64,000 bases of DNA from a virus (IMGVR_UViG_3300043409_000680:1-64000), one strand, 5' to 3'. Numbered from the stretch's first letter, positions 52,395 to 63,182 are shown. Numbers and translations are program-made. Notes: a model not told the origin generated them from the letters alone.

Positions 52395-52940
52395 ATGGCA
52401 CAGTCGCATCAAAACTGGCAGTATCTCGGTGCTAGCGGTTATATTGGAGCGTACACTACAACAGGTGGTGGCGGTACTCCTGTCGTACCACGAAGTGGTA
52501 TGGACTTCATCCGTATGGGTGTTGGTCGTGCTCCGCAAGCAGAGTATCCAGATGGCTACCTAGGAACTATTCGTTCACGTCGTGACGATAAGGGTAAACC
52601 TTATGCTATGTCCGACACAGTATTAGACTCACTAAAGAATCGCCAGAACCAGCGGGCGTATCAACGTGGAGTTCACAAAGGTGAGCGCATTGATCCAGGT
52701 TCATATATGTGGCCAGAAGGTCTAGAACCAGATCGTCGCTTAAACCCAAAGAAATATAAATTTGAAGACAATGACGGTGGAATTACTATGGTGACTGCAC
52801 GCTATGCTCCAGAAGCTAAATTAGCTCCTCCTCCACATCTTGTTAATGATGGTAAAGCAAACATTTCTGCTAACGTACCAGCAGAATTTAATCCTCGCAC
52901 AGCACAGTACTTTACACACTTAAAACCACGGTGGAAGTAA
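52395..52940 (+). CDS. Hypothetical protein
   Basis: AAGGAG RBS; AEYPDGYLGTI.SRR, RGVHKGERID. Confidence 0.7.
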   Translation: MAQSHQNWQYLGASGYIGAYTTTGGGGTPVVPRSGMDFIRMGVGRAPQAEYPDGYLGTIRSRRDDKGKPYAMSDTVLDSLKNRQNQRAYQRGVHKGERIDPGSYMWPEGLEPDRRLNPKKYKFEDNDGGITMVTARYAPEAKLAPPPHLVNDGKANISANVPAEFNPRTAQYFTHLKPRWK

Positions 52941-53584
52941 TGGCTCGTATATCTAACAGAGCAGTAACTGGGTTTTCTACACCCGACAATCCAGTAACTG
53001 GCCCAAGACATGGTAGACCCGTAAACTTTACTATTGATAGTGAAAAAGCTCCGCCTCCCGTAGATGATGAAGGCATAGAAATGCTTAGCAATCATGAAGT
53101 TGGTGAAATATTTGGCTGGAATAATCATAATTCAAAACGTATTAGTTATAATAAACCTATAAAACAGTATAAAGTTTACCCTACTAAAGAAAAAATTGAA
53201 AATTCAGAAAACACTGGACAAGGTGCACGTACTTGGTTTAGCTTATCTCATGTTGTAGAACATTTAGAGGACGCAGCAAAAGATGACCCTAAATGGAAAG
53301 GCGCACATACTTTTCATTCAAACAGGCTAAAACAAGCTCGCAAAATAGAAAAAACTCGCATTAAAAATGGCGGGGAAGTTTTTAATACTACTAATCAACC
53401 GCACCCAGCTAATAAAGTTAAAGGTATCTTTGGGCCTGATATCCGTAAATGGACTGAACAACGTGTAGGTATGACTAAGGGGCAATATGCGCCTTCAACA
53501 GAAAATGATTTAAGTTCAAATTTAGATAACCCCTATAACAATGGATTATTTACTTCAGTAGAAGACAGAGGAAACCCATCATGA
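52940..53584 (+). CDS. Hypothetical protein
   Basis: TAATG overlap. Confidence 0.65.
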   Translation: MARISNRAVTGFSTPDNPVTGPRHGRPVNFTIDSEKAPPPVDDEGIEMLSNHEVGEIFGWNNHNSKRISYNKPIKQYKVYPTKEKIENSENTGQGARTWFSLSHVVEHLEDAAKDDPKWKGAHTFHSNRLKQARKIEKTRIKNGGEVFNTTNQPHPANKVKGIFGPDIRKWTEQRVGMTKGQYAPSTENDLSSNLDNPYNNGLFTSVEDRGNPS

Positions 53585-53937
53585 TGAACCAAGACAGCGT
53601 TTATGATCATAGCAAAGGTCGTGCCATAGTTGGAGATGAGCCAGAACCAAATCTTCTCCGGTATGACTTCATGGGTCCATTTGCTAACATTCAAGAGGCA
53701 AACATGGCCAGAGCCCTTAAATCTGTTACTATGCCAGCACAGCTGCTTCCAGACTTAGTACGACCACCCCTTCCTAACTTAGTTTTGTTTCCACCACGTT
53801 TTGGGTATCGTACTCGTGAATTAGGAATCCTAGATGTAATGGATGTTAATGAAGAGTTCCAGCCAACCCGTGTAGACTTTACACGTGAACCCGGCGGTTA
53901 CCAGGGAACTGTTAGAAATGGATCCCTAGGAGTATAA
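53581..53937 (+). CDS. Hypothetical protein
   Basis: ATGA overlap. Confidence 0.65.
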   Translation: MMNQDSVYDHSKGRAIVGDEPEPNLLRYDFMGPFANIQEANMARALKSVTMPAQLLPDLVRPPLPNLVLFPPRFGYRTRELGILDVMDVNEEFQPTRVDFTREPGGYQGTVRNGSLGV

Positions 53938-54107
53938 TGAAAGAAGAGATTTCTACTGAGACTATCTATGAGGGTAGTGTTCAATGCCCTAAATGCGACC
54001 GGATTATGACCCCTCTAGAGGTTATGTACGCTGGTGGTAAACTATGTCCAGACTGTAGAAATCGCCAGTATGAATACCACACAAAGAATAAGATGGTAAA
54101 TGACTAA
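53937..54107 (+). CDS. Small Zn-finger protein (56 aa, CPKC...CPDC)
   Basis: TAATG overlap; two CxxC motifs. Confidence 0.65.
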   Translation: MKEEISTETIYEGSVQCPKCDRIMTPLEVMYAGGKLCPDCRNRQYEYHTKNKMVND

Positions 54108-54420
54108 GCCCGTTACTAGTCGGGGAAGATCCCCTAGGCCTAAGAAAGTTCCTAGTCCTAAAGTATCCAAACCAAATACTAGTGCTTCTAGAAGTCAGGC
54201 TCATGAGACTTCACACGTTAAAAAAGAGTTCCATAGCTCAGATAACTGGAAAAAAGTAGTTCGGGATGCCCCATGGGTCGGTGGACAATCCTCTGATTTA
54301 AACCCAGGCAGTACTGGAGCAATAGGTCGCAGAAAGAATAGCTCTAAGTTTAAAGCAAGGGGCAAAAAAGTAATTCGCCCTAGAATACAAAAACACCGCA
54401 AACAGACAGACAAGAAATAA
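54100..54420 (+). CDS. Highly basic disordered protein
   Basis: K/R/S/P-rich. Confidence 0.6.
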   Translation: MTKPVTSRGRSPRPKKVPSPKVSKPNTSASRSQAHETSHVKKEFHSSDNWKKVVRDAPWVGGQSSDLNPGSTGAIGRRKNSSKFKARGKKVIRPRIQKHRKQTDKK

Positions 54421-54441
54421 AAATAGGGGGATACTTACACC

Positions 54442-54618
54442 ATGGCTACTCATAGAATCATGACCCCAGACGGCAAGAAAGCCGACGGAGTTATTGTTAA
54501 GAAGGCTGTAGCTAAGACTTCTGAGCAGAAGATTAGACAGAAGATTAGAGAAGAGTTAAAGGCAAAAGCAGATGCTAAGCCTAAGGCAAAAAAACTACCA
54601 GGAAAGAAGAAAAAATAA
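54442..54618 (+). CDS. Lys-rich small protein (58 aa)
   Basis: MATHRIMTPDGKK...PGKKKK; TAATG overlap with next gene. Confidence 0.6.
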   Translation: MATHRIMTPDGKKADGVIVKKAVAKTSEQKIRQKIREELKAKADAKPKAKKLPGKKKK

Positions 54619-54878
54619 TGGGACTATTAAGTTTTGTTCGTAACCGTAAGGCGGTAGTTGCTTCACGTGCTACAACGTCGGGAATACCTGATAATTGGGA
54701 CGAGCCCTATGTTCACCCAACAGGGCCTAGCAATAAAGAATTAATGGCAGCTAAAGATGCAAAAACAGCTGCAAAAAATGAAGCAAATAACACACCGAGG
54801 AAACCAGTAACTTTTTCACAACCAGATATGACAAATGACCCACACAAGTATCGTTTAACAAGTTATGGTGATGATTAA
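54618..54878 (+). CDS. Hypothetical protein (N-terminus MGLLSFVRNRKAVVASRA)
   Basis: ORF track. Confidence 0.65.
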   Translation: MGLLSFVRNRKAVVASRATTSGIPDNWDEPYVHPTGPSNKELMAAKDAKTAAKNEANNTPRKPVTFSQPDMTNDPHKYRLTSYGDD

Positions 54879-54879
54879 C

Positions 54880-55176
54880 ATGGGACTAGGTAGTTTTGTA
54901 CGTTCTCGTAAAGCTGTAAAAGCTTCACGCGCTTCTTTAAATGGTATTGCTGGTCATCAAGCTGCTATGAAAGCATTAGGTAACCAGATGTCTAGAAAAA
55001 GCCGTGATCGCATGAGCTCAGAAAATATTGCAAAACGAAGTGTTCAGATTGACTCAGATAATGCTTCTCGTAACATTAAACCTATTACAGTAGATAACAG
55101 CCCAGAGTCAAAAATAAGAGTAACTCACTCTATAGATAACCTAGCAGCAAAGTATGCGGAAGAAGGACCACTATAA
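54880..55176 (+). CDS. Hypothetical protein (N-terminus MGLGSFVRSRKAVKASRA)
   Basis: Start set by paralogy with the previous gene. Confidence 0.65.
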   Translation: MGLGSFVRSRKAVKASRASLNGIAGHQAAMKALGNQMSRKSRDRMSSENIAKRSVQIDSDNASRNIKPITVDNSPESKIRVTHSIDNLAAKYAEEGPL

Positions 55177-55457
55177 TGGCAACTAACGAATCACGTTCTC
55201 TTAATGAGAGCCTATCAGAGGGATCAACAGACGGTAAGTACCGTAAAGTTGCTCCTAACCGTACTGTAGATCCAGGCATGGGTGATGAAATCACTACAGC
55301 TAACCGCCGTGGTCTACACCCATATTGGAACTATGATTTTATTGATCAAGAAGCTCCTATTAAGGTAGAGCCAGGTAAGATGGACGCTCCTTCAAAGAAG
55401 CGCTCTCCTATGCCTGTAGCTGATATCTCTAACAATCAGATGCTTGGTACATACTAG
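55176..55457 (+). CDS. Hypothetical protein
   Basis: TAATG overlap; AAGGA RBS. Confidence 0.65.
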   Translation: MATNESRSLNESLSEGSTDGKYRKVAPNRTVDPGMGDEITTANRRGLHPYWNYDFIDQEAPIKVEPGKMDAPSKKRSPMPVADISNNQMLGTY

Positions 55458-55461
55458 TACT

Positions 55462-55653
55462 ATGGGAAACTATGTATACAACAGAAACAAAAGTCGTAGA
55501 ACTTTTGGCCGTAATCCTCAAGAAATAGGGGATGCTGTAACGGCTTCTGGTATACCTGATGATGTAAGCTCCCCTAATGTTAAACCACTCAGAGATACTG
55601 CTGAGTTAAGAAAAATTGCTGCTGATTTAAAAGACCCTAAAAGGAAAAAATAA
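55462..55653 (+). CDS. Hypothetical basic protein
   Basis: ATG start at 55462. Confidence 0.55.
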   Translation: MGNYVYNRNKSRRTFGRNPQEIGDAVTASGIPDDVSSPNVKPLRDTAELRKIAADLKDPKRKK

Positions 55654-55654
55654 C

Positions 55655-56035
55655 ATGGCTAAAAAGTCTGCTAAAATGATTATGCAACAAAGAAAGAACT
55701 TTGCTGTCGCAAAATCTAAATTAGTAGACACAGTAAAAAAGAATTACATAGACCCTGTTAGGCGTGACCCCAACACTCCTAAAGAACCTAGAGCTAAGTT
55801 TGGCTCATGGGAAGGTAGAACATCTACTTTTTTTGGTCTTTCTCCAAGTCAAAATGAAAATAGAGAAATACAGCCAGTACAAGGCGCACTAGATAACCAT
55901 ATACAAAATGCACAGGCCAATGCACCTGAATCTTTGGGGTTAAAGAGGGTCAATCATTTTAATACAGGTGGTTCTGAGCATCTAGCTACTGTTACTGACA
56001 TAGGTCCAGATAGCGCAATTCGAAACCGTAAGTAA
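55655..56035 (+). CDS. Hypothetical basic protein
   Basis: ORF track. Confidence 0.6.
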   Translation: MAKKSAKMIMQQRKNFAVAKSKLVDTVKKNYIDPVRRDPNTPKEPRAKFGSWEGRTSTFFGLSPSQNENREIQPVQGALDNHIQNAQANAPESLGLKRVNHFNTGGSEHLATVTDIGPDSAIRNRK

Positions 56036-56042
56036 TAGTATA

Positions 56043-56930
56043 ATGGCATCTACAGATAAACCCAATCCTGGTAGAGGTGTAGATAAAAAACCTGTTCTCG
56101 TAGAGCGTGGGCACGTTGTACCTGTTGCTCCCTATGATCAAACTAATCCAAATACCTCAGGTCCTGCATACTCTCCTGTAACAGGGGATAGGGCAGAAAA
56201 CCAAGAGTGGATCAATACCCCACTTAGATGTGATCATGGTGCTCCCCATAAAACAACTCCTATTTACCGTGTATCTCAAACAGGTAAAGAAAAACCTCAA
56301 AATCTTTGTGGATTTCATTATGAAAGAGCAAAGAACAACGGGCTAATTGACTCTAGTAGACCACCAATAGAACTGACTAATGACCCTGAGCACATTAAAA
56401 GTATTAACCTTGAAGATTATCAGATTAAGTTAGGACAAAAAAATAGAGACGCCGCAATAGTTTTTGAAAACACAGGTTTACTAAGAAATGTTAGAACTGT
56501 TGGACGTCCTGCCACCCCCTCTTCAGATACACAAGCAGCCTTAGATAGAGCAAATACTGGCGGAGGACATTTACCTAAAGACCACGAAGAAATTTTAAGT
56601 AAGGCATATACTGCATTGTTACACTCTAAGAAAGAAAATGATGACGTACCACACTATCCTACTTACGCCAAGAAAGCATTAAGTTTAGGGGTACACCCTT
56701 CTCATGTATCTAAATACTTTGATTATGCTGTCGCTTACCATAAAAAATTAACCGGGGAATCTGCTGTACCCCCAGTTAGCCGTGAAATAAAGATCCGTAA
56801 AGCCCAACTTGACTTTGCTAGTAGCGATTCTCCAGTTGAATCAACAGAGACACTTATGCAGTCTGATATCCCGGCAGCCGTAGATGAACAAGGTAACTCA
56901 AGTAGATCCCCTAAACCTCGCTACGATTAG
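56043..56930 (+). CDS. Hypothetical protein with C..H / C..H Zn-like motif
   Basis: CDHGAPH...LCGFH. Confidence 0.6.
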   Translation: MASTDKPNPGRGVDKKPVLVERGHVVPVAPYDQTNPNTSGPAYSPVTGDRAENQEWINTPLRCDHGAPHKTTPIYRVSQTGKEKPQNLCGFHYERAKNNGLIDSSRPPIELTNDPEHIKSINLEDYQIKLGQKNRDAAIVFENTGLLRNVRTVGRPATPSSDTQAALDRANTGGGHLPKDHEEILSKAYTALLHSKKENDDVPHYPTYAKKALSLGVHPSHVSKYFDYAVAYHKKLTGESAVPPVSREIKIRKAQLDFASSDSPVESTETLMQSDIPAAVDEQGNSSRSPKPRYD

Positions 56931-56986: not shown

Positions 56987-57568
56987 ATGGCCGTCCCTAT
57001 TTTGGGTGGAAGTTCGCAACCAGCGGATGAAGGAACATACACAGAGATCAAGGACGATGGTCCTAAGATTCGTCTGCTGTATTGCTATAACTGTAAGAGC
57101 ATTGAAGAACTGCCTGATTATGAAGGCCACCCAGATGATGATGTAACCCTACAAGTATTAATTGATCGCCACGAATCTGCCGGTATTCCACATAACGGAT
57201 TCCTATCTAAAGTGGGAGTTAAGTTATACTCACGCCCTGAAGTTAAGAAACAGATTGTAGAAAACCTACGCAATAAAGTAGGTGGAGGTCTTGCTGATAT
57301 TGACCCAGACTACTACACTACTAAAGCTACATTCTACGATGATGCAATGAAGTGCTTTAACCTTCATCTACGTCCTGTAGAGGGCTGTTATGATTGGAAG
57401 AGCGAAACAAAGCGCCTAGTTCCAAAGAGCACAGCAGAGGCACGTAAAGAATTAGGTCTAGAATCAGCAGCAAAGTCCGGCGGTACAAAAGTGTACCTCT
57501 GCGATTTTTGTCCTGCTAAAACTTATGTAGTTGAACAAAACCGTAAAAAACTCGGACTATACGAATAG
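56987..57568 (+). CDS. Cys-rich Zn-binding protein
   Basis: AGGAGG RBS; upstream TATAAT; CYNC, CF..H....GC, LCDFCP. Confidence 0.7.
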   Translation: MAVPILGGSSQPADEGTYTEIKDDGPKIRLLYCYNCKSIEELPDYEGHPDDDVTLQVLIDRHESAGIPHNGFLSKVGVKLYSRPEVKKQIVENLRNKVGGGLADIDPDYYTTKATFYDDAMKCFNLHLRPVEGCYDWKSETKRLVPKSTAEARKELGLESAAKSGGTKVYLCDFCPAKTYVVEQNRKKLGLYE

Positions 57569-57576
57569 GATATAAA

Positions 57577-57843
57577 ATGACAGAAGAAACAACCACAGAT
57601 ACTCCAGTAGATGCAACAAACCTACCAGTTCTTAAGTATGGTTTTGCCGTACTAGTAGATGAAGATGCAAATGTTTTCATTGAAAAGAACCCATCAGTAT
57701 TCTCAATTCCAGTAGAGCGTGAATCTACATTAGTAGAGGTTCGCCGCTATATGTCAGAAATCCTTATGGATCTTCAGGCACAAGCCGCTGCAGAATACAC
57801 AGTTCTACGACTAAATGCAAGTAAAGAAGAGACAGCCTCTTAA
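57577..57843 (+). CDS. Hypothetical acidic protein
   Basis: ORF track. Confidence 0.65.
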   Translation: MTEETTTDTPVDATNLPVLKYGFAVLVDEDANVFIEKNPSVFSIPVERESTLVEVRRYMSEILMDLQAQAAAEYTVLRLNASKEETAS

Positions 57844-57898
57844 TATTCATATCCACCAAGCCGAGACGTAATGACGATTGAGATGGAAGAATACGGGT

Positions 57899-58813
57899 AT
57901 GGAATACGCAGAGTTTGGAAAGGCCCCGGAGATTACTCCTGGGGCAACGTCCTACTTCAGCGCACCTTCATCTGAACTAGACCCCACATTATTCCAAGAC
58001 CAGGAGTTAAGGCCGTGGGTACGCACAGGCGTGCTCTCTATGCTCTTTGCCTATCTGGCTACTAGATTTTCTAACCCACACCAGTGGACACACGTCTGGT
58101 TAGCTGGATCTGGAATCTCATATCAATGGGAAGCTCAACGTTCTCCAGGAGACTTAGACTGCTTAGTTGGTATTGAGTATGTTAAGTTTCGTCAAAGTAA
58201 CCCAGAATATGTTGGTTACTCCAATGTTGAAATTTCTAAAGAACTCAATGAAGGATTTAATGCTGAGCTTATGCCTAAAACCCGTAACTGGGAAGGCTAT
58301 GAGCTTACATACTATGTAAATACACAGAGTGATATAAGAGATATCAATCCGTATGCAGCTTATGATCTAACGGCTGATGTTTGGACTGTAAAACCAGATA
58401 TGAATCCGCAACCTCCTTACAGCAGAGCATGGGAACATCGCACGCAACGTGATCATGACATGGCTGTAGATATGTTGGGTAAGTATAACTCTGCTATTGA
58501 TGAGATTAGAAGTACAAATAACCCTGCTTACCGCACTAATGCTGAGCGAAAGCTTAAATTAGCAATGGAGCAGGCAGTTGCTTTCTATGATGATATTCAT
58601 GCAGCACGGCACATTGCATTCAGTAGTACAGGATCCGGGTATTCAGATTATAACAACTATCGTTGGCAAGCTGGAAAACGTTCTGGGGCAATACAGGCAC
58701 TAAGATCTCTCAAAGATCTTAAGACTAATGCAGAGCGTGTTAACCAGGTACAGACATATGGTGTAGAATTACCGGACGCATCAACTTTGATTAGGAGAAC
58801 GCTACGTGGGTAG
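57899..58813 (+). CDS. Pol-beta superfamily nucleotidyltransferase
   Basis: hLAGS...Y.W....GDLDCLV; downstream ELTYY strand; helical C-terminal domain. Confidence 0.75.
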   Translation: MEYAEFGKAPEITPGATSYFSAPSSELDPTLFQDQELRPWVRTGVLSMLFAYLATRFSNPHQWTHVWLAGSGISYQWEAQRSPGDLDCLVGIEYVKFRQSNPEYVGYSNVEISKELNEGFNAELMPKTRNWEGYELTYYVNTQSDIRDINPYAAYDLTADVWTVKPDMNPQPPYSRAWEHRTQRDHDMAVDMLGKYNSAIDEIRSTNNPAYRTNAERKLKLAMEQAVAFYDDIHAARHIAFSSTGSGYSDYNNYRWQAGKRSGAIQALRSLKDLKTNAERVNQVQTYGVELPDASTLIRRTLRG

Positions 58814-58916
58814 TACTGTTTTTTGTAGAAAGTGTGGGCATGAGTTAGATCATGGAACATGTGTTTCAAATATTTGTAAATGTATTTGTGAAAAAGTAGG
58901 TACACCGGAGGATTAA
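58806..58916 (+). CDS. Cys/His-rich microprotein (36 aa)
   Basis: AGGAG RBS, GTG start; MGSTVFCRKCGHELDHGTCVSNICKCICEK; stop abuts the next ATG. Confidence 0.6.
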   Translation: MGSTVFCRKCGHELDHGTCVSNICKCICEKVGTPED

Positions 58917-59381
58917 ATGGCAACAGCACTCGTAGCACTAGAAGGCGTACTTATGACGGAGGTCGGGGATCCAATCCCTGAGGGCATTCGTTTATTCCGC
59001 ATACTCTCAGCTAGCTATCGTGTTGTAATTTGCTCTGATATGTCACAGGCACACACAGAACATTGGTTACGCTCCCACTTGATTACAGGTCAAGGAGATG
59101 TCTATGATAATAGGTACTTCTTTGAGGGCCAAGACCTACGCTCCCGCCAGCTAGCTGTAGCTCTTAATGGTGGTCGTGTGGATCTATTTGTAGATCCGGA
59201 CGCTGATAGATGTGCTGAAGCAGTTGCTATGGGAATAACCGCCCTTCTATTTGCAGCACCTAAATTTGTAAGAACTAAGCGCCAAGTAAAACCATGGGAA
59301 GATGTGGTTAATGAGGTTGAACGCCAGAAACTCGCCCTACTAGAAGCAGAGCTCGGTAGCTCAGTTAAGAGATATGAATGA
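58917..59381 (+). CDS. HAD-like fold protein lacking the DxD motif
   Basis: LVALEGVL...PIPEGI.L...L....VVICS......HWL...LFVDPD. Confidence 0.55.
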   Translation: MATALVALEGVLMTEVGDPIPEGIRLFRILSASYRVVICSDMSQAHTEHWLRSHLITGQGDVYDNRYFFEGQDLRSRQLAVALNGGRVDLFVDPDADRCAEAVAMGITALLFAAPKFVRTKRQVKPWEDVVNEVERQKLALLEAELGSSVKRYE

Positions 59382-60871
59382 ACATAGTATTCCTAGGTGG
59401 AGAGGTTCCCTCTCACCGTAACCTCTTGGTTAATGCTGGTGTAAAGCATATTGGCGTAAGCTATTACCGTCTAGTAAAGCGTGGTTTGCCTAAGTCTAAA
59501 CCCTACCTATTATCAGAGAGATTTCCTGATGATGTAAAGATTTACGTAGATGGCGGCGGCCACCAGCTCAATGACCTAAACATGACAGAGCGAGAGCTCG
59601 AAGAGTATGCTGCCGACTATCAAGACTGGCTTATTCTCAATGAAGATAGAGTTACCCTAGCCAGTGAATTGGATATTAAATCCCTGGGATCTAACTGGAT
59701 CAACCATGAGCGCCGTACATTTTGGGAAGACTTTGGTTTAGATAAATTTATTGCAATTTGGCACCAAGAAACCGGGCATGCAGCCCTATATGGCCTTGCT
59801 CAGCGTTACACCCACGTAGGAATACTCGGAGAGTCTATTGAGGACGACACGAGCCTTGCAGCCCGTTCTAAGGCCATCCTACAGGAGTTCCCTGAAGTCT
59901 CATTTCATGGAATCGCTTGTGCTCGCCCGGACAATCTACGCCAGGTATCTTTAACAACTGCCAGCACCCTATCTTGGCTCAGCCCAATGATGAGAGGGGA
60001 AACAATTGTGTGGGACGGCACTCGTCTGGTTCGTTACCAGAAGAAGATGAAGGATCAGGCTCGCCCACGATACAAAGCAGTTATTGAGAAAGTCGGTTTG
60101 GACTTTGAGAAGATTCTTAATGATGATAGTAACGAAGTTACTAAGTTAGCCATATGGTCATACCTGCAGCTAGAAAATTCTTTAAACAAGAAATCACACC
60201 TTTCAGTAGTTAATCAAGAGAAGTTATCTGATAACAGTGCGGATAAGGATGACCCCGGAAGTGCGGAAACCATGGGTCCCGACCCTGATAATAGAGGGGT
60301 AGAGGTGCGGAAAGAATTTAAACTTAAACAGCCTAAAGAGACCTATACCCTTCCAGTTTTTGGCGTAACTTCTAAAACTATTATGGAAAAAGATGAACTT
60401 GGAAGGGATGTTATTAAAGATGTTCCCATCATCGTCAGCACACAGAATTCCTTTCGTCAATGTAATACTTGTTTTGTTGCATCGAATTGCCCAGCATTTA
60501 CTCCTAATAGTGCATGCGCTTTTAACCTCCCAGTGGAAATTAAGACTAAAGACCAACTCAAGAGTTTATTGAACGCAATTATTGAAATGCAGGGCGCTAG
60601 AGTCGCTTTTGCACGTTTTGCTGAAGAATTGAACGGCGGATACCCTGATCCAAATACCGGCCAAGAGATTGATCGACTCTTTAAGATCATAGGAGAACTT
60701 AAGAAAATGGAAGAGAACAAGGAGTTTGTTCGCATGACCGTAGAGCGTCAAACCTCTAGCGGTGTAATGTCAGCACTCTTTGGAGATAAAGCAAACACTT
60801 TAAGGGAACTTCCGATTGGACTTACCGAGGGTGAATCTGCTAGAATAATCAATGACACATTAGAAGGATAG
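59378..60871 (+). CDS. TGT/DpdA-like TIM-barrel protein with C-terminal 4-Cys domain
   Basis: YVDGGGHQ (cf. DSGGFQ), ELD, IAIWH, HVGI, FHGIA, STLSW; CNTC.....C........C. Confidence 0.55.
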   Translation: MNIVFLGGEVPSHRNLLVNAGVKHIGVSYYRLVKRGLPKSKPYLLSERFPDDVKIYVDGGGHQLNDLNMTERELEEYAADYQDWLILNEDRVTLASELDIKSLGSNWINHERRTFWEDFGLDKFIAIWHQETGHAALYGLAQRYTHVGILGESIEDDTSLAARSKAILQEFPEVSFHGIACARPDNLRQVSLTTASTLSWLSPMMRGETIVWDGTRLVRYQKKMKDQARPRYKAVIEKVGLDFEKILNDDSNEVTKLAIWSYLQLENSLNKKSHLSVVNQEKLSDNSADKDDPGSAETMGPDPDNRGVEVRKEFKLKQPKETYTLPVFGVTSKTIMEKDELGRDVIKDVPIIVSTQNSFRQCNTCFVASNCPAFTPNSACAFNLPVEIKTKDQLKSLLNAIIEMQGARVAFARFAEELNGGYPDPNTGQEIDRLFKIIGELKKMEENKEFVRMTVERQTSSGVMSALFGDKANTLRELPIGLTEGESARIINDTLEG

Positions 60872-60935: not shown

Positions 60936-62966
60936 TTGTTTTCCTTCAAGCTCACCGAAGATTTTGTAAATTCATATAAAGAAAAAACTGTACCATGGGG
61001 ATATAAAGATGCCGCAGGTAACTCAGTCGGTGAGATTATCTTTCTAAGGACCTACTCTCGTCTTAAAGAGGACGGGACAAAGGAGACTTGGACTGAAGTA
61101 TGCGAACGTGTCATCAATGGCATGTACTCCTTGCAGAAAGACCACGCCAAGCAGAACCGCCTACCATGGAATGACGCCAAAGCACAAGCTTCAGCCAAAG
61201 AAGCATTCCAGCGTCTATTTGAATTGAAGTGGACACCTCCAGGTCGAGGCCTATGGGTAATGGGTACTGACATTGTGAATGTTCAAAGGAACTCAGCCGC
61301 ACTTCAGAACTGCTCATTCGTATCTACAAACTCAATGACCAAGCTAGATCCTGCCAAGCCATTTGCATTCCTAATGGAGGCTTCTATGCTGGGAGTGGGA
61401 GTTGGCTTTGACGACAAGGGTGCAGACAAAGACTTCACAATCTACGAACCACAGAAGGGAGATGACTATGTCATCCCAGATACCAGAGAAGGATGGGTCG
61501 AATCCACATCCGCTCTCATCAATGCTTACCTCAGAGCAGATACAAAGGCTCCAGTATTTCGTTACGAAGAAATTAGACCAGCAGGCACGCCAATTAAAAC
61601 TTTCGGGGGAACAGCCGCCGGATCCGAACCTCTAGAGAAACTTCATGCCTATATCTCTAAGATCTTTGGGGGACGTGCTGGACAAAAAGTTACTCGCAAG
61701 GACATCGCAGATCTAGGAAATCTAATTGGAGTCTGTGTCGTTTCCGGTAACGTTCGCCGTTCAGCTGAGCTACTCATTGGTCGTATTGACGATGATGAGT
61801 TCCTTAACCTAAAGAATGCAGATGTATTCCCGGAGCGTAATTCTTATGATCCAAAGGCTCCAGGTTGGGGTTGGATGTCAAACAACTCGGTAGAGGCTAG
61901 TGTAGGTACAGACCTCTCAAAGATCATAGACGGCATTTCTCGTAATGGAGAGCCAGGCGTGGTCTGGATGGATGTAACTCGTAAATACGGTCGACTTGCT
62001 GATCCAATAAATAATAAAGACTGGAGAGCTGCCGGGTATAACCCGTGTGCAGAACAATCCCTAGAATCAATGGAGTGCTGTACTTTGGTAGAGACCTACC
62101 TCAATCGTCATACAGACCTAGATGACTACAAGCGTACGCTTAAGTTTGCTTACCTCTATGCAAAGACTGTAACTCTTCTTCCTACTCATTGGGAAGAGAC
62201 AAACGCAATCATGCAGCGTAATCGCCGTATTGGAACATCAATGTCAGGTGTTGCAAACTTTGCGGATTTGAAGGGGCTTCCAACTCTACGTGAGTGGATG
62301 GATGCAGGTTATCAGACAGTTACTGCCTATGATAAGAGTTACTCTGAATGGCTTGGTATTCGTGAATCAATTAAAACTACAACTGTAAAACCATCCGGCA
62401 CTGTATCTATTCTCGCAGGAGAATCACCAGGAGTACATTGGACCCCCGGTGGTAAGTATTTCCTACGTACTATTCGCTTTGCTAATAGTGATGCAATGCT
62501 CCCATTGTTCAAAATGGCTAACTACCGTATTGAACCAGCGTTAGAATCCCCCGGTACAACATCGGTGGTGTACTTCCCAATTAAGAGTGAAGCGATACGT
62601 TCTGAGAGAGAAGTATCTATTTACGAAAAGATGGCGCTTGCTGCAACTGCACAACGCTATTGGTCAGACAACTCTGTAAGTGTAACGATCAGCTTTGATC
62701 CTGCTACAGAGGCTAAAGCAATCGGCACAGCACTTCACATGTACGACGGACAACTTAAGACTGTATCATTTCTACCGATGGACCCGAATAGTTACCAACA
62801 AATGCCGTATACACAGAGCACTGAAGCTGAGTATGCGGACGGTACTATGAAACTCTTTCCCATTGATTTTAGTGGAATCTATAATGGGTTGGGATCGGAC
62901 GCTATCGGAGAAGCATACTGTACGACCGATGCATGTGAAGTAAAGCTAATCAAAGATAATATCTAA
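60936..62966 (+). CDS. nrdJ: Class II (adenosylcobalamin-dependent) ribonucleotide reductase, monomeric RTPR type
   Basis: FLRTYSR, PPGRGLW, LQNC, GNVRRSA, NPCAEQ, TVKPSGT, C-terminal CTTDAC. Confidence 0.92.
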   Translation: MFSFKLTEDFVNSYKEKTVPWGYKDAAGNSVGEIIFLRTYSRLKEDGTKETWTEVCERVINGMYSLQKDHAKQNRLPWNDAKAQASAKEAFQRLFELKWTPPGRGLWVMGTDIVNVQRNSAALQNCSFVSTNSMTKLDPAKPFAFLMEASMLGVGVGFDDKGADKDFTIYEPQKGDDYVIPDTREGWVESTSALINAYLRADTKAPVFRYEEIRPAGTPIKTFGGTAAGSEPLEKLHAYISKIFGGRAGQKVTRKDIADLGNLIGVCVVSGNVRRSAELLIGRIDDDEFLNLKNADVFPERNSYDPKAPGWGWMSNNSVEASVGTDLSKIIDGISRNGEPGVVWMDVTRKYGRLADPINNKDWRAAGYNPCAEQSLESMECCTLVETYLNRHTDLDDYKRTLKFAYLYAKTVTLLPTHWEETNAIMQRNRRIGTSMSGVANFADLKGLPTLREWMDAGYQTVTAYDKSYSEWLGIRESIKTTTVKPSGTVSILAGESPGVHWTPGGKYFLRTIRFANSDAMLPLFKMANYRIEPALESPGTTSVVYFPIKSEAIRSEREVSIYEKMALAATAQRYWSDNSVSVTISFDPATEAKAIGTALHMYDGQLKTVSFLPMDPNSYQQMPYTQSTEAEYADGTMKLFPIDFSGIYNGLGSDAIGEAYCTTDACEVKLIKDNI

Positions 62967-62975
62967 GGAGATATA

Positions 62976-63116
62976 ATGACAGAGCCAGAGATCAATCCAG
63001 ACCTATTTGAAGAAGACTTTGAGGATGACTTTGAAGACTTCGAGTTTGATGAAGAAGACCTAGAGGACATTGATGATTTGTTCCTAGAGGAAGACTCAGA
63101 AGAGACGGCAGAATAA
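62976..63116 (+). CDS. Extremely acidic 46-aa protein
   Basis: TAAGGAG RBS; MTEPEINPDLFEEDFEDDFEDFEFDEEDLEDIDDLFLEEDSEETAE. Confidence 0.75.
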   Translation: MTEPEINPDLFEEDFEDDFEDFEFDEEDLEDIDDLFLEEDSEETAE

Positions 63117-63131
63117 CGCCCAAACGCCCAA

Positions 63132-63182
63132 CACAAACATTTGGCCCCGACTCAATTAAGAGCCGGGGCCATTTGCTTTGTC
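63132..63182. terminator. Bidirectional terminator between converging gene blocks
   Basis: tggccccgactc / gagccggggcca stem with A-rich left flank and T-rich right flank. Confidence 0.75.

Follow-up and report, generated by a model that had tools for sequence, protein, structure and literature searches.

The window analysed here is a stretch of 64,000 nucleotides (IMGVR_UViG_3300043409_000680:1-64000) with which a 73.6-kb IMG/VR virus record begins (G000; estimated completeness 75%). It encodes, on the + strand at 59378-60871, a 497-residue protein with a predicted TGT/DpdA-fold barrel, referred to below as the TGT-like protein or pseudo-DpdA. In this protein and its relatives the aspartate that serves DpdA as nucleophile appears to have been lost, and the gene belongs with two smaller genes, p193 and p154, to a conserved triad. 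Our preferred reading, to which we give about an even chance of being right, is that the triad is a DpdA-derived pseudoenzyme system that would bind bases rather than exchange them.

Fold, ancestry and active site of the TGT-like protein

The TGT-like protein consists of a barrel (residues 1-277) and, joined to it by a disordered acidic linker (278-330), a C-terminal domain with a four-cysteine (Cys4) cluster and a helical part (331-497). It matches the PHROG family phrog_887, annotated as 'queuine tRNA-ribosyltransferase', with an E value of 1.2e-56. No match beyond chance level was obtained in Pfam (including the TGT model, PF01702), NCBIfam or PADLOC, and PDB sequence searches with the 497-residue protein and with alignments A3, A5, A6 and A7 returned chance-level rows only; the DpdA proteins of phages 9g and BCD7 likewise gave no PDB sequence match. 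An AlphaFold2 (AF2) model built from 73 diverse homologues (alignment A3) has a mean predicted local distance difference test score (pLDDT) of 82.9, the blocks of the eight-stranded barrel lying at 91-98. The barrel aligns with ArcTGT (1iq8_A) with a VIA Z of 17.8 and a root-mean-square deviation (rmsd) of 3.4 Å over 262 aligned residues, and with bacterial TGTs with Z 17.0-17.6. Foldseek matches of the model include a TGT (E 3.1e-5), Cap10 (9ntn_B, 1.7e-4) and DpdA (7ui4, 2.4e-4). These matches confirm that the protein contains a true TGT/DpdA-fold barrel.

Comparison of the TGT-like family with phage DpdA proteins by hhalign gave a probability of 99.9% (E 4e-34, 264 columns) for gp021 of BCD7 and 97.3% (E 2.1e-11) for the DpdA of 9g. 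The BCD7 gene lies directly after those for GTP cyclohydrolase (FolE), QueC, QueE and QueD; its product is also found in PHROG 887 and has the C-terminal Cys4 domain in common with the window protein, with a near-identical Cys motif. Because of this alignment, the shared PHROG and the shared Cys4 domain, the TGT-like protein can be said to descend from the same genuine phage DpdA lineage as the DpdA of BCD7. BCD7 gp021 (L083 4195-6468) has 757 residues, its length being due to two linker insertions of ~108 residues, one of them Lys/Pro-rich, and it has no Pfam match.

The Cys4 cluster of the C-terminal domain (C362-x2-C365-x5-C371-x8-C380; 60461-60517, + strand) is invariant in all 73 sequences of the alignment and in 143-145 of 150 family representatives. 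The VIA alignments to ArcTGT and human TGT reach as far as model residues 370-376, in keeping with a Zn subdomain like that of TGTs. The model is less confident in this region, with block means of 71-86 for residues 331-440, but 47 for residues 351-360. The family is large (853 clusters at 50% identity with E <= 1e-3, and at least 1574 clusters at 90% identity) and ranges over uncultured phages of ~100 kb, Streptomyces phages and actinobacterial genomes.

An earlier note on the window (the original prediction) had described a four-gene operon at 57899-60871, made up of a nucleotidyltransferase (NTase), a Zn microprotein, a degenerate HAD-like protein and a TGT-like barrel without its nucleophilic Asp. 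The four open reading frames (ORFs) and all of the motif strings quoted in it are present as described, including VDGGGHQ, ELD and TASTLSW in the TGT-like protein. In a gap-free column of the alignment the window protein reads ..ASTLSW, that of the Streptomyces phage BRock ..VSSTSW, the 9g DpdA ..CDSSSW and the BCD7 DpdA ..GDSTTW, such that the Asp of the two DpdA proteins, the nucleophile position, falls on Ser196 of the window protein (codon 59963-59965, + strand). According to the part of the structural study of the bacterial DpdA from S. Montevideo that was covered (PMC10164549), the nucleophile is Asp256, at the start of the β8/α8 insertion, with Asp95 acting as general acid/base and Asp130 and His181 recognising the base; none of the three Asp residues varies among TGTs and DpdAs, and the substitutions D95A and D256A each abolish activity. 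The Asp of 9g is equated with Asp256 because residues 156-218 of the 9g protein align to positions 200-259 of the PADLOC DpdA profile (E 0.02). Ser196 itself sits in barrel strand 8 of the model.

Among 150 family representatives taken at 50% clustering, the residue in the 196 column is Ser in 66, Ala in 20, Thr in 16, Gly in 16, Met in 6, Val in 5, Tyr in 4 and others in the remainder, with Asp in a single one; in alignment A3 Asp is likewise found in one of 73 sequences. On the alignment and the predicted model, Ser196 would occupy the nucleophile position and the Asp would have been lost in the family, as the original prediction had proposed for the window protein. The sole Asp bearer among the 150 (P0138) nests inside a nucleophile-less clade, and may have regained its Asp or represent an active form that was never lost; a scan for loci with P0138 returned distant loci only (<=37% identity), and scans with P0179 and P0255 found none.

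Other residues of the putative active site have a different history. D58, E97, D99 and H177 are kept in the window protein and in all of the 120 closest cluster representatives (a figure obtained as the difference of two tallies), while across the 150 diverse representatives D58 is present in 85, with Glu in a further 18, and D99 in 108. By alignment to the 9g DpdA, D58 is the Asp of the LDSG-type motif and H177 corresponds to 9g His196, named as the 'conserved histidine' in the part of PMC6884629 covered; D58 and D99 are equated with Asp95 and Asp130 of the bacterial DpdA through the 9g and BCD7 alignment and their strand positions. In a tree rooted on BCD7, the D-E-D-H set is kept by the soil and Streptomyces lineages, which have Ser, Ala or Gly at position 196; pocket residues have been replaced in several freshwater sister lineages, and the P0250/L102-type clade retains none of the four. 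All clades retain W200, G207, E/D208 and the Cys4 cluster.

In glycosyl-transfer enzymes, removal of the nucleophile can make room for water. Loss of the Asp might on this basis have produced a hydrolytic N-glycosidase, which would serve host takeover by stripping the host's DNA or RNA of guanine-type bases, and the small residues (Ser, Ala, Gly, Thr) that replace the Asp, together with the putative acid/base D58 and the base-reading residues that stay in many lineages, would suit such an enzyme. We regard it as very improbable: the gene survives in clades that lack D58, D99 or H177, such an enzyme would endanger the DNA of the phage itself, and the portions of the literature covered hold no precedent in the TGT superfamily.

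Searches for the 7-deazaguanine pathway gave no match for QueC, GTP cyclohydrolase I (FolE) or Pfam TGT in the whole record G000. QueC and QueD were also absent from all 12 IMG/VR relatives (11 at 100% and one at 95% completeness) and from both Streptomyces phages, BRock and GiJojo, with BCD7 serving as positive control for the two genes. Because the nucleophile Asp is missing and QueC and QueD are absent from the relatives, the TGT-like locus is not a classical Dpd system. This agrees with the earlier argument, drawn from the lack of folE and queCDE genes in the window, against classical deazaguanine modification; the combination that would have spoken for a known Dpd system, an intact nucleophile and a preQ0 pathway elsewhere in the genome, was not found, the residue being Ser196 and the pathway searches negative.

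A working DpdA could still be envisaged, one that inserts a host-made 7-deazaguanine or another base by means of an alternative or partner nucleophile, in the manner of a singleton DpdA with an anti-restriction role. Homology to the DpdA of a preQ0 cluster, the conservation, in both the window subclade and the soil clade, of D58, E97, D99 and H177, the acidic residue at position 208 (140 of 150) and the conserved acidic residue in motif I of p154 (Glu in 26 and Asp in 22 of 49 aligned) all point in this direction, and host-reliant singleton DpdAs are described from other phages in the part of PMC6884629 covered. We nevertheless consider a working DpdA quite unlikely, given that the nucleophile Asp is absent from 149 of the 150 representatives and that several clades have lost the whole base pocket yet retain the gene and its partners. 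E208 would be no replacement, since BCD7 has E208 plus the Asp. That Mycobacteria are reported in the same part of PMC6884629 to be without any Q-pathway gene may also count against it.

Composition and conservation of the module

Gene neighbourhoods were compared in four sets of loci, namely 80 from the window clade, 15 from bacterial genomes (mostly actinobacteria, the inspected contexts looking prophage-like), 26 from the divergent (P0250) clade and three further ones. The ORFs of these loci were scanned with profiles of four families at E <= 1e-5, and a locus was taken as evaluable if its sequence upstream of the TGT-like ORF came to 3 kb or more, which left 105 and excluded 19 (18 with <3 kb and one without an ORF-level match). 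p154 lies immediately upstream of the TGT-like gene in 104 of the 105 evaluable loci and p193 is found upstream in 103, the order p193-p154-TGT-like being the same in all 104 loci where both partners were found. The gene for the NTase-like (NT-like) protein is present in 76 of the 105 (70/70, 5/14, 0/19 and 1/2 in the four sets, respectively). Without the filter, p193 and p154 occur in 25 of the 26 loci of the divergent clade and the NT-like gene in none, while 5 of the 15 bacterial-genome loci carry the NT-like gene. Profiles of the NT-like protein, p154 and p193 match BRock and GiJojo, but not BCD7 or 9g. The conserved unit, across four clades, is the triad of p193, p154 and the TGT-like gene. 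The third conserved partner, p193 (56987-57568, + strand), lies outside the coordinates of the original prediction and had been missed.

p193 is a Cys/His-rich protein of 193 residues. In its alignment (A7, 32 sequences) C33, H62, C123, C134, C172 and C175 are invariant and C36, H69 and H127 are conserved in at least 90%, a pattern that makes two or more metal sites probable. It has no match in Pfam, PHROG or the PDB profiles, and the best ESM Atlas neighbour (0.84) offered nothing usable.

p154 (58917-59381, + strand; 154 residues) is the protein that had been described as a pseudo-HAD. It carries an N-terminal motif, h-h-h-[LIV]-[E/D/N]-G-V-L, which reads ..VALEGVL.. in the window. If the N-terminal strand corresponds to motif I of the HAD fold, the first position of the would-be DxD is Leu, Ile or Val and the third Glu, Asp or Asn in all aligned members; the latter position is acidic (26 Glu and 22 Asp) in 48 of the 49 sequences aligned there, out of 67. 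Across these 67 sequences, only G22, L25, W49, G105, P114 and W126 are conserved at 85% or more, and none of them looks catalytic. The absence of the first-position Asp therefore holds familywide. The HAD label itself was not confirmed: p154 has no match in Pfam, PHROG, NCBIfam, PADLOC or the PDB profiles. In Pfam, one of 36 members hits Hydrolase_6 at E 0.061 and the 120 listed homologues carry no Pfam domain; the Pfam NT5C model did not find p154 in 19 genomes, and hhalign against an NT5C protein gave an insignificant E of 0.13 over the 'WL' helix. ESM-Atlas feature neighbours include NIF/HAD clusters (0.90-0.92), a weak signal that starts at rank 10. Prediction of a complex between the TGT-like protein (A3) and p154 (A6) was weak (score 0.16, mark 0.32) and speaks neither way.

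The NT-like gene lies on the + strand and ends at 58813. The longest ORF starts with a TTG at 57878 (311 residues), and homologues align from the ATG at 57899 (304 residues). The AF2 model (pLDDT 89.2) shows a Pol-beta-type NTase-like N-terminal domain and a helical C-terminal domain. G77, S78, D92, D94 and E142, which make up the pattern hG[GS]...DxD with a later Glu, are invariant in all 40 aligned homologues, and the GS and GDLD catalytic motifs noted earlier are thus borne out across the family. Residues ~36-169 resemble minimal NTases to a middling degree (1ylq, Z 6.8-6.9, rmsd 3.2 Å over 89 residues; 1no5_B, Z 6.3; 2rff_A, Z 5.8). The top PDB rows in Foldseek are NTases, if weak ones (best E 1.3e-2), and include CD-NTases, ANT(6), AadA and a CCA-adding enzyme; Pfam and the PDB profiles gave no match. 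From the conserved motifs the protein is probably an active transferase, and its gene is the only candidate enzyme of the locus. In BFVD, 11 structural relatives were found at E <= 1e-3, including larger fusions, and one of them is named as a nucleotidyltransferase-domain protein; because these relatives occur in other phage contexts and fusions, the NT-like protein belongs to a broader phage family with a life of its own. A protein of BCD7 annotated as 'nucleotidyltransferase', gp015, was considered as a relative and rejected as unrelated (hhalign probability 0.1%).

The aminoglycoside-modifying type of NTase deserves a remark of its own. ANT(6), AadA and AAD(9) are as prominent as CD-NTases among the weak Foldseek matches, and have the same layout of an NTase and a helical domain. 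Aminoglycosides of Streptomyces have reportedly been described as anti-phage compounds.

Zn36 (58806-58916, + strand), the Zn microprotein, has 36 residues with six Cys and two His. Its Cys pattern was found in 8 of 78 loci, in six distinct sequences of 33-36 residues, five of which end in ..TPED like that of the window. In other loci the same slot holds a C2HC-type zinc-finger-like ORF of 32-33 residues (7/78), a K/R-rich ORF of 36-57 residues or a Lys-rich one of ~85-100 residues, and in 39 of the 78 it is empty (gap <60 nt, no ORF). The junction between the NT-like gene and p154 is a hot spot for tiny ORFs, with a content that depends on the lineage (window, L002-L081).

In the window itself the four genes are tightly packed as the original prediction had it, the NT-like gene overlapping Zn36 by 8 nt, Zn36 abutting p154, and p154 overlapping the TGT-like gene by 4 nt (ATGA). 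They are not conserved as a unit, because the NT-like gene is missing from 29 of the 105 loci and the Zn36 type occurs in 8 of 78; the four-gene operon stands as a layout, and the conserved set takes in p193 from outside it and leaves out the NT-like gene and Zn36. These two genes are accessory rather than core; they would be lineage-specific insertions into the module and no part of its mechanism, and Zn36, occupying a variable slot, does not qualify as a core component.

This distribution bears directly on the model put forward at the outset, a four-protein machine centred on the NTase that would repair or tag tRNA, or make and sense a nucleotide signal in counter-defence, with the degenerate TGT-like and HAD-like proteins binding the substrate. 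The invariant GS, DxD and Glu residues (40/40) suit an active enzyme at its centre, the gene is found inside the module in the window clade (70/70), in BRock and GiJojo and in five genome loci, CD-NTases and the CCA-adding enzyme are among the top Foldseek rows, and Cap10-CdnD offers a precedent for a TGT fold combined with an NTase. However, the triad persists where the NT-like gene is absent, which includes 19 of 19 evaluable loci of one clade and 9 of 14 bacterial-genome loci, and so the four-protein complex is not upheld. The rarity of Zn36, the 11 structure-related proteins in other phage contexts, the weak fold matches (Foldseek E 1.3e-2 at best, Z 5.8-6.9), the lack of a QueC-like partner and of any PADLOC match to a CD-NTase, Cap9 or Cap10 at E <= 1, and the absence of tRNA genes from the window (none were found) all argue in the same direction, and we judge the model decidedly unlikely.

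Our preferred reading centres on the triad and takes the pseudo-DpdA to be its base-binding component. With the loss of the nucleophile that forms the covalent sugar intermediate, base exchange by double displacement would no longer be possible, and the protein would have become a non-catalytic binder, most likely of nucleic acid. In the window lineage it could probably still accommodate a guanine-like base. p154 and p193 would probably act together with the pseudo-DpdA, because the genes are translationally coupled or adjacent in four clades. Since the parent enzyme acts on DNA, we lean by analogy towards a DNA-directed role, in protection, in recognition or associated with replication.

Several observations weigh against the idea of a non-catalytic nucleic acid binder. 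The module proteins are all acidic, with isoelectric points (pI) of 5.4-5.9, which is unusual for non-specific DNA binders. The nucleophile position was assigned by profile alignment to two phage DpdAs and by the strand topology of a predicted model, not by residue-level superposition. That the window subclade and the soil clade strictly retain D58, E97, D99 and H177 would fit an active enzyme with a different chemistry, for example that of a hydrolytic glycosidase or one in which a partner supplies the acid, and the residue at position 208, acidic in 140 of 150, could be catalytic, though BCD7 has E208 in addition to its Asp. Finally, the pathway searches covered QueC, FolE and QueD in the phage genomes alone.

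A more far-reaching proposal, which we consider unlikely, is that the triad is a new phage machine evolved from a DNA transglycosylase and working without 7-deazaguanine. In one version a composite site may have formed, in which an acidic residue of p154 or E/D208 replaces the lost Asp and supports new chemistry on guanine in DNA or RNA. In the other, the complex may be a guanine-flipping reader that shields or marks phage DNA against host defences. Window-like lineages may then have added the nucleotidyltransferase to modify the captured site.

Genomic surroundings of the module

The virus is an actinophage, because every listed relative is an actinobacterial phage or an actinobacterial genome. 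The window has a G+C content of ~42%, and a megablast search of 14 kb against phage records gave no match. Around the module lie phage replication and lysis genes, for a DNA polymerase, a UvsX-like recombinase, a Cas4-like exonuclease, a metallophosphoesterase and an endolysin. A promoter scan returned 14 sites, against 16.3 +/- 4.1 in shuffled sequences, such that operon boundaries could not be drawn.

Between p193 and the NT-like gene lies p88 (57577-57843, + strand), which encodes a small acidic protein (pI 4.2) without a match in Pfam or PHROG. Its tblastn matches are confined to the closer loci L002-L046, with none in L047-L081 or GiJojo, and it is best described as a lineage-restricted filler gene. 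Directly downstream of the module is a gene for a class II (B12-dependent) ribonucleotide reductase (RNR; 60936-62966, + strand; Pfam PF17975, E 2.9e-30, and PF21995, E 5.3e-12; phrog_367, E 1.4e-135), a neighbour and not a member of the module.

The RNR gene adjoins the module in most window-clade loci, and this raises the possibility that the triad serves nucleotide metabolism as an accessory, which would bind guanine or nucleotides, and not nucleic acid, and act as regulator or scaffold for the dNTP-supply genes beside it. In the seven P0250-clade loci (of 26) whose flanks were listed, none of them with an adjacent RNR, the downstream genes include DUF6378 and HD/YfbR-like ones (Pfam) and, by motif reading only, an NT5C-type gene in L120, and in L102 a Pfam NT5C gene (E 4.5e-11) follows the TGT-like gene; guanine-reading pocket residues, moreover, are kept in many lineages. 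On the other hand, the module no longer adjoins an RNR gene in prophage-like loci or in BRock and GiJojo, its neighbours in these two phages being lysis genes, HNH and small ORFs. Clades with a degenerate pocket keep the module, and such an accessory would be without known precedent. We hold this explanation to be distinctly unlikely.

L102, a contig assigned to an Ignavibacteria metagenome-assembled genome (MAG), carries the triad and the NT5C gene together with ORFs that by eye are DUF6378-like and WhiB-like, and is apparently the contig of an actinophage that was binned with a bacterial MAG. WhiB-like ORFs also recur, by eye, downstream of the module in the divergent clade. In the remainder of G000 a large vWA-type protein beside an AAA-ATPase-like protein (65878-69147, - strand) and a WhiB-like Cys protein (73303-73626, - strand) were likewise recognised by eye. 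A link of the module to lysis was considered in view of the lysis genes near it in BRock, GiJojo and one prophage-like locus, and 5 kb upstream of it in the window, and was rejected, as no protein feature supports it.

Upstream of p193, at 52395-56930, there are ~9 successive hydrophilic ORFs without a match in Pfam or PHROG. At least one of these (55176-55457) resembles, in its N-terminal motif, ORFs that closely precede p193 in loci of the divergent clade (L105-L130), and because of this recurrence the conserved block may exceed the triad. In the stretch 62976-63180 an extremely acidic ORF of 46 residues comes right after the RNR gene, and beyond this ORF a strong hairpin at 63142-63171, readable on both strands and with 12 pairs of which 9 are G-C, marks the end of the long array of + strand genes.

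Significance and comparison with known systems

Members of the family are already labelled 'dpdA-like' or 'queuine tRNA-ribosyltransferase' in phage records. A description of the nucleophile loss, the missing pathway or the partnership with p193 and p154 was not found in the literature as covered, which excludes the supplementary lists of DpdA phages in PMC6884629 and PMC10516641. In the part of PMC10516641 covered, DpdA is put forward as a signature protein family of 7-deazaguanine in the DNA of viruses. If DNA modification is predicted from genomes, the present family would be miscounted, because it bears the DpdA-like label despite the missing nucleophile and pathway genes; presence of the gene does not mean modified DNA. 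The module is also of interest as an obligate set of three genes that has survived deep divergence, during which the ancestral active site has decayed step by step. Since BRock-type phages can be cultivated, the evolution of pseudoenzymes in phages can be studied here in a tractable system.

In its logic, the proposed role resembles that of QTRT2, a non-catalytic TGT-fold subunit that pairs with QTRT1 according to the covered part of a recent preprint (bioRxiv 10.1101/2025.04.06.647259). The likeness is one of logic, that of a TGT-fold non-catalytic binding partner, and it ends with the partners, which here are two unrelated small proteins; G000 encodes no catalytic TGT/DpdA by the Pfam TGT model.

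Type IV cyclic-oligonucleotide-based antiphage signalling systems (CBASS) with Cap10-CdnD (9NTN) share with the window a gene for a TGT-fold protein beside one for an NTase-fold protein, and Cap10 is among the structural matches given above. From the same portion of that preprint, Cap10 keeps the nucleophile D248, lacks the Zn site, and needs the QueC-like Cap9 and a Gly-rich N-terminus of the CD-NTase. The window family has neither the nucleophile nor a QueC-like gene, the NT-like protein begins MEYAEFGK.. in place of a Gly-rich N-terminus, and no CD-NTase or Cap10 model matches, and the analogy with type IV CBASS suggested earlier does not hold. Furthermore, the module of the window belongs to a phage and is no defence operon of a host, and it can do without the NT-like gene.

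With the bacterial DpdA of S. Montevideo (7UI4) and the TGTs, the window protein has in common the TIM-barrel fold, acidic residues where strands 3 and 4 end, and a Cys-rich element that follows the barrel. It differs from them in having no sequence match to PDB chains or to Pfam TGT, no nucleophile Asp and no DpdB-like partner, and in its C-terminal helical domain.

The closest known counterpart is the DpdA of BCD7, which has a homologous barrel, the same order of barrel, linker, Cys4 and helical C-terminal domain, and a place in PHROG 887, and which shares D58, E97, D99, H177, W200 and E208 with the window protein. BCD7 has the nucleophile Asp and adjoining preQ0 genes, whereas the window family has Ser, Ala, Gly or Thr at this position and no pathway genes. 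BCD7 is also without p193 and p154, which are obligatory partners of the pseudo-DpdA in the window family.

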